In this document: positions 24,385-24,619 of the stretch, piece after piece | Layout: every line of letters starts with the position of its first letter | Numbering within the stretch: position 1 is the stretch's first letter | NCBI GenBank assembly: GCA_043821725.1 | Contig: JBDRCM010000012.1 | Location: 1 to 62,881 of the forward strand | Origin: a bacterium | GTDB taxonomy: Bacteria > Patescibacteriota > Patescibacteriia > Magasanikbacterales > GWA2-37-8 | Direction of reading: 5' to 3' | Length of the DNA: 62,881 nt | Notes under the pieces: generated by a model | The model's database searches: none | The model's input: only the letters and a program-made list of their open reading frames with translations | What the model was told of the DNA's origin: nothing | Program-made: the position numbers and the translations under genes

Positions 24385-24619
24385 GGGTCTATCGCCAAAT
24401 GCGCTTTCGCAACGAAATTGATAAATTATGAGACAAAATTGTTGATAATTCCATAGTTATCTTCGCTCGCTCGAAAAAGAAAAATTATCATTTTTCTTTT
24501 CTCTCGCTTCGCTTGATAAAAAATTTTGAGGCCTATCTGTAAGATAAACCAAGAAATTTTGAAACGATTTTGGCTATAATTTATGAATTGCAGTAGAAAT
24601 GGTATTTGGCGACAGACCC
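24385..24619. mobile_element. 235-bp non-autonomous MITE-like element with 16-bp terminal inverted repeats
   Basis: The left end GGGTCTATCGCCAAAT and right end ATTTGGCGACAGACCC match as inverted repeats at 15 of 16 positions. There is no ORF inside. The element exactly fills the gap between the dnaE stop (24382-24384) and the prs stop (24620-24622). Shorter relatives lie at 12768, 33619, 49211 and 49340. Confidence 0.7.

Follow-up and report, generated by a model that had tools for sequence, protein, structure and literature searches.

The window analyzed here, a stretch of DNA of 62,881 nucleotides, is contig C12 of a 1.01-Mb genome assembly (hereafter G000; 46 contigs, 37.8% G+C, 98.9% complete). 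Within it, the convergent genes dnaE and prs are separated by a 235-bp element that fills the interval from one stop codon to the other and in which an ORF scan found none of at least 40 aa. The features of this junction, and the shorter sequences elsewhere in the window that resemble the ends of the element, are listed below in coordinates of the window.

20920-24384, plus strand: dnaE, encoding DNA polymerase III alpha (1154 aa; assigned by Pfam); its TAA stop codon abuts the element
24380-24384, no strand: left copy of the target duplication, TTTAA, which includes the dnaE stop codon TAA
24385-24619, plus strand: copy of a miniature non-autonomous element (MITE), 235 bp, identity to the family consensus 97.9%; orientation set by the left GCGCTTTCG...CGAAA arm
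24385-24400, plus strand: left TIR, GGGTCTATCGCCAAAT
24445-24517, plus strand: 73-bp insert, present in the 235-bp form and absent from the 162-bp core form
24473-24501, plus strand: A/T-rich hairpin within the insert, with arms of 13 nt and 12 nt and a TATC loop
24604-24619, minus strand: right TIR, which reads GGGTCTGTCGCCAAAT on the minus strand (ATTTGGCGACAGACCC at 24604-24619)
24620-24624, no strand: right copy of the target duplication, TTAAA, which includes the prs stop codon (TTA on the plus strand)
24620-25552, minus strand: prs, encoding ribose-phosphate pyrophosphokinase (310 aa; assigned by Pfam); its stop codon (TTA, reverse complement TAA) abuts the element
12768-12820, minus strand: degraded 53-bp mini-MITE
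33619-33671, minus strand: mini-MITE of 53 bp, in which the left 33 nt and the right 20 nt are joined at a GAAAT microhomology; target duplication ATAAC
49211-49270, minus strand: deletion derivative of 60 bp; target duplication TTAAT
49340-49362, plus strand: 23-bp hairpin whose match to the termini is limited to the outer 8 nt, such that its membership in the family is doubtful

The two ends of the element (24385-24400 and 24604-24619) are inverted repeats that agree at 15 of 16 positions. Matches to this terminus with no more than three mismatches occur eight times in the window; dinucleotide-shuffled versions of the window contained 0.4 on average, and none of 100 shuffles reached eight. 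A preliminary description, made from the window's sequence, had proposed an ORF-less 235-bp element with such ends that fills the dnaE-prs gap from stop codon to stop codon and abuts TTAA on both sides (the dnaE TAA on the left, the prs stop codon on the right), and the sequence, the ORFs, and the Pfam assignments bear this out. It had also pointed to an internal A/T-rich palindrome. The palindrome is present (GAAAAAGAAAAAT at 24473-24485, TATC, and ATTTTTCTTTTC at 24490-24501), but it is not original MITE sequence, as it lies within the 73-bp insert, which is related to a second repeat family described below.

Each of the two genes, read in its own direction, ends in ...TTTAA immediately before the element. 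The duplication flanking this copy is imperfect, in that TTAA is exact on both sides and the 5-mers TTTAA and TTAAA agree at four of five positions. From this arrangement we infer that the exact stop-to-stop fit arose by insertion at a TTAA that was common to both convergent stop codons; if the stop codons originally overlapped in this palindromic tetranucleotide, duplication of the TTAA target would leave both proteins unchanged. The prs gene of G000 stops one residue earlier than that of G001, a genome of the same genus. The dnaE genes of the two genomes also differ: that of G001 (L045, G001:C19 4297-8961) encodes a 1554-aa protein containing an intein with a LAGLIDADG domain, and the window's dnaE (1154 aa), unlike it, is without an intein. 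At the start of the window (positions 1-50) is a tandem repeat (two units of GACAGGCAGAAAAACGATCAGGAT) that recurs at the end of G000 contig C34, so the two contigs probably join there.

The 235-bp element belongs to a family with many copies in G000 that fall into discrete size classes. With up to three mismatches allowed, the genome contains 120 termini, 45 of which are identical to the family consensus terminus, GGGTCTGTCGCCAAAT, and 34 complete elements. Thirteen of these are 233-235 bp long (three further copies are near-complete), 10 are 53-54 bp, three are 80 bp, and sizes of 35, 36, 46, 60, 162, 194, 263, and 364 bp are represented by a single copy each; the shorter forms amount to about 20 copies. 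The 16 full or near-full copies have a mean pairwise identity of 93.8%. Approximately 17 contig ends stop within copies of the 235-bp form, indicating that G000 has at least 25 copies of this form and that they break the assembly.

The four short sequences in the window had been interpreted in the preliminary description as the two ends of the element joined together, products of internal deletion. This is clear for those at 33619 and 49211, and the one at 12768 is a degraded copy; the one at 49340 is doubtful. The 53-bp class is uniform, with one fixed junction in at least 10 copies in G000, several of which are flanked by their own exact 5-bp duplications, which indicates that the class spread after the deletion had occurred and supports the interpretation of the shorter sequences as internally deleted derivatives. 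The 80-bp class in G000 behaves in the same way, and the amplification of the two classes implies that mobility requires no more than a few tens of nucleotides at the ends. Amplified deletion derivatives of other bacterial MITEs likewise form discrete size classes with fixed junctions, each of which spreads further.

Target-site duplications and the comparison of occupied and unoccupied sites both speak to mobility. Exact 5-bp duplications flank 15 of the 34 complete elements in G000 and 25 of 59 in G037, another genome of the order; the modal length is 5 bp, the duplicated sequences are A/T-rich, and the number fell to zero in a control in which the right flank was shifted by 30 bp. At the dnaE-prs site in G001, the two genes are convergent, their 3′ ends overlap by 17 bp, and the element is absent. 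Conversely, a 162-bp copy lies between smpB and ssrA (tmRNA) in G001, and the corresponding interval in G000 is ~20 bp long and has no element. Sites filled in one genome and empty in the other, together with the copy number and the target-site duplications, bear out the mobility proposed in the preliminary description: the 235-bp stretch is a true non-autonomous DNA transposon, a member of a MITE family specific to Patescibacteria. In orthologous DNA, G000 and G001 have 65-73% identity; internal copies of the MITE in G001 are 80-90% identical to G000 copies, and pieces of the 235-bp form at G001 contig ends (L046, L047) are 95-100% identical to G000 copies. The near-identity of these pieces suggests, from sequence comparison, that CPR lineages living side by side have recently exchanged mobile DNA, although they could also be assembly artefacts, since the best matches sit at contig ends. 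The G000 copies are probably no longer mobile, given that the assembly contains no transposase (see below) and that the copies average 94% pairwise identity. In a search for an empty site at the strain level, the sole sequencing-read run found holds MITE relatives and not the organism of G000.

Among 240 genomes of the order, the terminus (with at most one mismatch) was found in 26, and bursts were seen only in G000 (79 termini at this threshold) and G037 (92 termini); a reversed control pattern gave 0-1. The latter genome, 0.93 Mb in size, has 238 termini when up to three mismatches are allowed and about 50 copies of 158-163 bp; at G037:C19:2695 and G037:C45:11304-11485, MITE copies are nested within other MITE copies. 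A scan of metagenome contigs with the terminus returned 120 loci, roughly one third of which are CPR MITE copies of 158-166 bp, and contained no long pair of termini. Two scans of viral contigs with the terminus gave only chance matches, within coding DNA or phage intergenic DNA. A match ending ...ACGTTAAG (L091) was likewise set aside as chance, the contig being without long ORFs. The 16-mer GGGTCTGTCGCCAAAT also occurs as a coding motif within topoisomerase I genes of unrelated bacteria (L130, L095, L101), such that a single terminus match does not prove the presence of a MITE.

Comparison of the size classes indicates that the 235-bp form is a composite. The 162-bp form present in related genomes corresponds to positions 1-60 and 134-235 of the 235-bp form, and the last ~57 nt of the intervening 73-bp insert match the 3′ end of a second repeat family with ~80% identity (ATGAACCCCTCC...GGTAATAAA). 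The stem of the insert differs from the stem of the second family by compensatory changes. These similarities point to the 3′ hairpin of the second family as the source of the insert, and hence to the 235-bp form as a chimera of the 162-bp core and an insert related to the second family that subsequently multiplied. Members of the second family are ~165 nt long (ATGAACCCCTCCC...GGTAATAAA), with three hairpins and no inverted ends. In G000 they are located outside the window, for example at C20:20420-20590, at both ends of C7, at C26:1-150, and at C27:1-150; they cause many of the contig breaks in this assembly, and they are also found inserted in MITE copies after ...TTTCGCA. Chimeric and nested MITEs in general likewise carry one repeat family within another; the difference here is that the module taken up is the hairpin-bearing end of a gene-less repeat of IS200/IS605-like type.

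The preliminary description had noted that no transposase was in view, and this holds for the whole of G000: profile searches of the genome detected no Tn3 (PF01526), rve, or DDE_Tnp_1 transposase, and there is no trace in the assembly of the IS5-like transposase discussed below or of the ends of its insertion sequence (IS). Every terminus in G000 leads into MITE sequence or is a truncated or solo end; in no case does the inside of a longer element follow. A full-length element with the same TIRs and a transposase does exist in other Patescibacteria. In G037, a solo terminus near a contig end (C43:8183) leads into sequence that is homologous to contig C45 of another genome, G135. There, GGGTCTGTCGCCCAAT is followed by ~150 bp and then by an open frame of 348 aa that encodes DUF772 and DDE_Tnp_1 domains (333 aa in the annotated protein), after which the contig ends. 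Relatives of this protein number 1745 at E <= 1e-10, the closest being 70-85% identical; the few with names are labelled Magasanikbacteria, Patescibacteria, or Parcubacteria, and relatives are common in Patescibacteria. The contigs that carry them are mostly 1.1-2.5 kb long, which fits a multicopy IS whose copies collapse during assembly. Genome binning normally leaves out contigs of this size, and because the ~1.3-kb contigs of this IS would usually be lost in this way, its absence from a metagenome-assembled genome (MAG) such as G000 is weak evidence that the organism lacks it.

Complete copies of the IS are 1248-1272 bp (~1.26 kb) long and contain a single gene for a 333-338-aa transposase with PF05598 and PF01609 domains. 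Their ends read GG(G/C)NCTGTCGCC(A/G)AA(T/C), with TIRs of ~16-19 bp, and variants of these ends include GGCACTGTCGCCAAAT, GGGACTGTCGCCAAAT, GGGCCTGTCGCCGAAA, and GGGTCTGTCGCCAAAT. The last of these is the left end of the IS at L387 (507-522), which is identical to the G000 consensus terminus at 16 of 16 positions. Seven independent insertions of the IS are flanked by perfect 5-bp duplications (CTTAA, TTAAT, TTCAA, TATAT, GGCCT, TTTAT, and AAATA). Pieces of the IS are present in the burst genome G037, on contigs C43, C35, C53, and C67, as fragments at contig ends, and also in G135; none is present in the G000 assembly. The left end on G037 C67, GGGACTGTCGCCGAAT, is identical at 16 of 16 positions to 49 MITE termini of that genome, including a lineage-specific G at position 13.

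The family placement of the IS is approximate. Its best near-full-length NCBIfam match is NF033581 (IS5_4), with scores of 125-136 bits, just below the cut-off of 140, and it matches NF033551 (IS1182) in the N-terminal part, with scores of 142-150 against a cut-off of 270; we therefore refer to it as IS5/IS1182-like, an uncertified assignment, and regard the transposase as a divergent lineage centered on Patescibacteria. Members of the IS5 family likewise have one DUF772 and DDE_Tnp_1 transposase of ~330 aa, a length of ~1.2 kb, and short TIRs starting with GG. The duplication of the Patescibacteria IS, at 5 bp, differs from those of the IS5 family: in ISfinder, the IS5 group usually has 4-bp duplications, and other subgroups have duplications of 2-4, 8, or 9 bp. 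A literature search returned no paper describing this IS5-like transposase lineage of Patescibacteria and none linking IS5 elements or MITEs with Patescibacteria.

The agreement between the MITE and the IS in termini and in duplication length makes it likely that this IS5-like family supplies the transposase that moves the MITE; IS5-family elements and the MITEs that they mobilize are among the closest known systems. Some observations count against this assignment. Only the terminal ~16-19 nt are common to the MITE and the IS; internally the two are unrelated, and none of the IS copies examined could have given the MITE by simple deletion. Genomes carrying the GGCACTG-type of the IS (G019, G072, and G197) have IS ends only and no MITE swarm. 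At the level of the order, co-occurrence of MITE and IS is weak, and it is confounded by the incompleteness of MAGs. Further points against the assignment are the lack of any trace of the IS in the G000 assembly, the sub-cut-off IS5_4 score, the 5-bp length of the duplication where IS5-group elements usually make 4 bp, and the imperfect duplication around the copy at dnaE-prs.

The short stretch in common, the lack of a MITE swarm alongside the GGCACTG-type IS, and the lack of such an IS in the G000 assembly are what might be seen if a different transposase, one that we have not seen, moved the MITE, and if the termini that it has in common with the IS5-like element were convergent or of distant ancestry. 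IS1595 elements in this order start with GGGTCT too (L064), one of them with GGGTCTTGTC. However, the duplication made by IS1595 is 8 bp long (TATTTTTT), compared with 5 bp for the MITE, and IS1595, the commonest IS of the order (28 of 240 genomes), is in no case bounded by the terminus. A complete 720-bp element of the IS1595 type, with ends GGGTCTTGTCTAGGAAAT and this 8-bp duplication, is present at L064 1283-2002 (G093:C21). The IS6 family was tried on the assumption that the MITE terminus resembles the ends of IS26/IS257, and its profile (PF13610) gave only weak matches, none of them in MITE-bearing genomes. The rve elements and other DDE_Tnp_1 elements that MITE-bearing genomes do contain have ends that differ from those of the MITE. 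The IS5-like element, in contrast, agrees with the MITE in terminus and duplication length and also resides in G037, the other burst genome, and we consider it improbable that another transposase is responsible.

Movement by a Tn3-family transposase, which would make the element a Tn3-derived miniature element (TIME), is less probable still. Our lead was what we take to be a resemblance between positions 1-11 of the MITE terminus (GGGTCTGTCGC) and positions 2-12 of the Tn3 inverted repeat (GGGTCTGACGC), which is not itself a test of the relationship, and the imperfect inverted repeats of the MITE extend for ~80 bp. TIMEs are, like this MITE, small and ORF-less, with the 5-bp A/T-rich duplications of Tn3-family elements, a long foldback structure (~-70 to -115 kcal/mol), and a capacity for nesting (PMC4133298). 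They also have 38-bp Tn3-type inverted repeats and a cognate Tn3-family transposon (PMC4133298). Neither was found for the MITE. Its ends start with GGGT and are without the fourth G and the inner TAAG of the expected ~38-bp repeat (GGGG...TAAG). PF01526, absent from G000, is present in three of the 240 genomes of the order, none of which bears the MITE, and the inverted repeats of the Tn3 elements that were found are unrelated to those of the MITE (GGGTACGATTGTAAAGAAAGGG... for G086, GGGTGTTTTCCTACAAAGGTACG... for the L258/L051 clade). No Tn3 locus that we retrieved carries the terminus, and a scan of genome contigs with the G086 TnpA gave five loci, none with it. Moreover, both the terminus (16 of 16 positions) and the 5-bp duplication are accounted for by the IS5-like IS. 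One candidate inverted repeat, downstream of a Paceibacterota tnpA (L051), was refuted by a 72%-identical relative (L258), in which the true inverted repeat is GGGTGTTTTCCTACAAAGG... The 4-kb Tn3 contig binned with G086 has an identical counterpart in a record titled "uncultured Gammaproteobacteria" and one of 89% identity in a Sericytochromatia MAG (L015/L049, L050), and it is probably either mis-binned or a widely shared mobile contig.

The MITE has a very stable predicted fold (-79 kcal/mol for the whole element, z = -7.9 relative to shuffled sequences) that has a polarity. Across subfamilies with diverged interiors, mismatches in the arms are mostly G·U wobbles on one strand (in the inner arms, 29, compared with 7 on the other strand), and when 14 copies of ~160 bp from different genomes were oriented by sequence, the same strand folded better in all 14, by a mean of ~15 kcal/mol. 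This consistent one-strand G·U bias in the hairpin arms distinguishes the family from other amplified or chimeric bacterial MITEs. That the element is instead an immobile, conserved structured RNA or a bidirectional terminator is extremely unlikely: the stable fold, its strand preference, and the location between convergent essential genes are in keeping with such a role, but the target duplications, the empty orthologous sites, and the patchy distribution are not, a search of Rfam 15 with the element gave nothing above noise (best score 27 bits, gathering score 70), no terminator-like or promoter-like site was found in it, and the orientation of copies has no clear relation to that of the flanking genes (9 "--", 4 "++", 9 "-+", and 5 "+-"). 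A secondary role at the RNA level, acquired after insertion, may nevertheless exist.

The G·U polarity may result from selection on the single-stranded form of the element or from a mutation bias tied to its orientation. Selection on the single-stranded form, acting either on a functional transcript or on a foldback intermediate used by the IS5-like transposase, is in our view a rather unlikely explanation, albeit one that would fit the capture and retention of a covarying hairpin by the 235-bp subfamily. If a transcript were involved, the MITE would have a function of its own (in processing, termination, or antisense control) in genomes that have few regulators; if a foldback intermediate were involved, it would be a mechanistic variant new to DDE enzymes.

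Our preferred reading, mobilization by the IS5-like element, leads to the following model. The IS5/IS1182-superfamily DDE transposase encoded by the ~1.26-kb IS would move the MITE in trans, recognizing the common 16-19-bp TIR and inserting the element by a 5-bp staggered cut in A/T-rich DNA. In the lineage of G000, the 162-bp core MITE would have gained a 73-bp hairpin fragment of the second, IS200/IS605-like repeat family, and the resulting 235-bp chimera would then have risen in number to at least 25 copies. The 53-bp and 80-bp mini-forms would have arisen from it by internal deletion and would also have multiplied. The copy in the window would have landed in the TTAA where the convergent stop codons of dnaE and prs met, and the insertion would have been tolerated because the target duplication kept both stop codons.

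Genomes of Patescibacteria (CPR bacteria), ~1 Mb in size, are commonly regarded as containing little mobile DNA. Within this order, two genomes are nonetheless rich in termini of the MITE, with 120 in G000 and 238 in G037 at up to three mismatches, and in G000 the MITE repeats cause many of the breaks in the assembly. The identification of a concrete, likely IS5-like partner makes mobilization of the family directly testable and places the family as IS5-like in place of Tn3-like. The likely source of the family, an IS5-like element of ~1.26 kb, collapses in assembly to contigs of ~1.3 kb, and this serves as a warning that surveys based on MAGs under-count insertion sequences in CPR bacteria.
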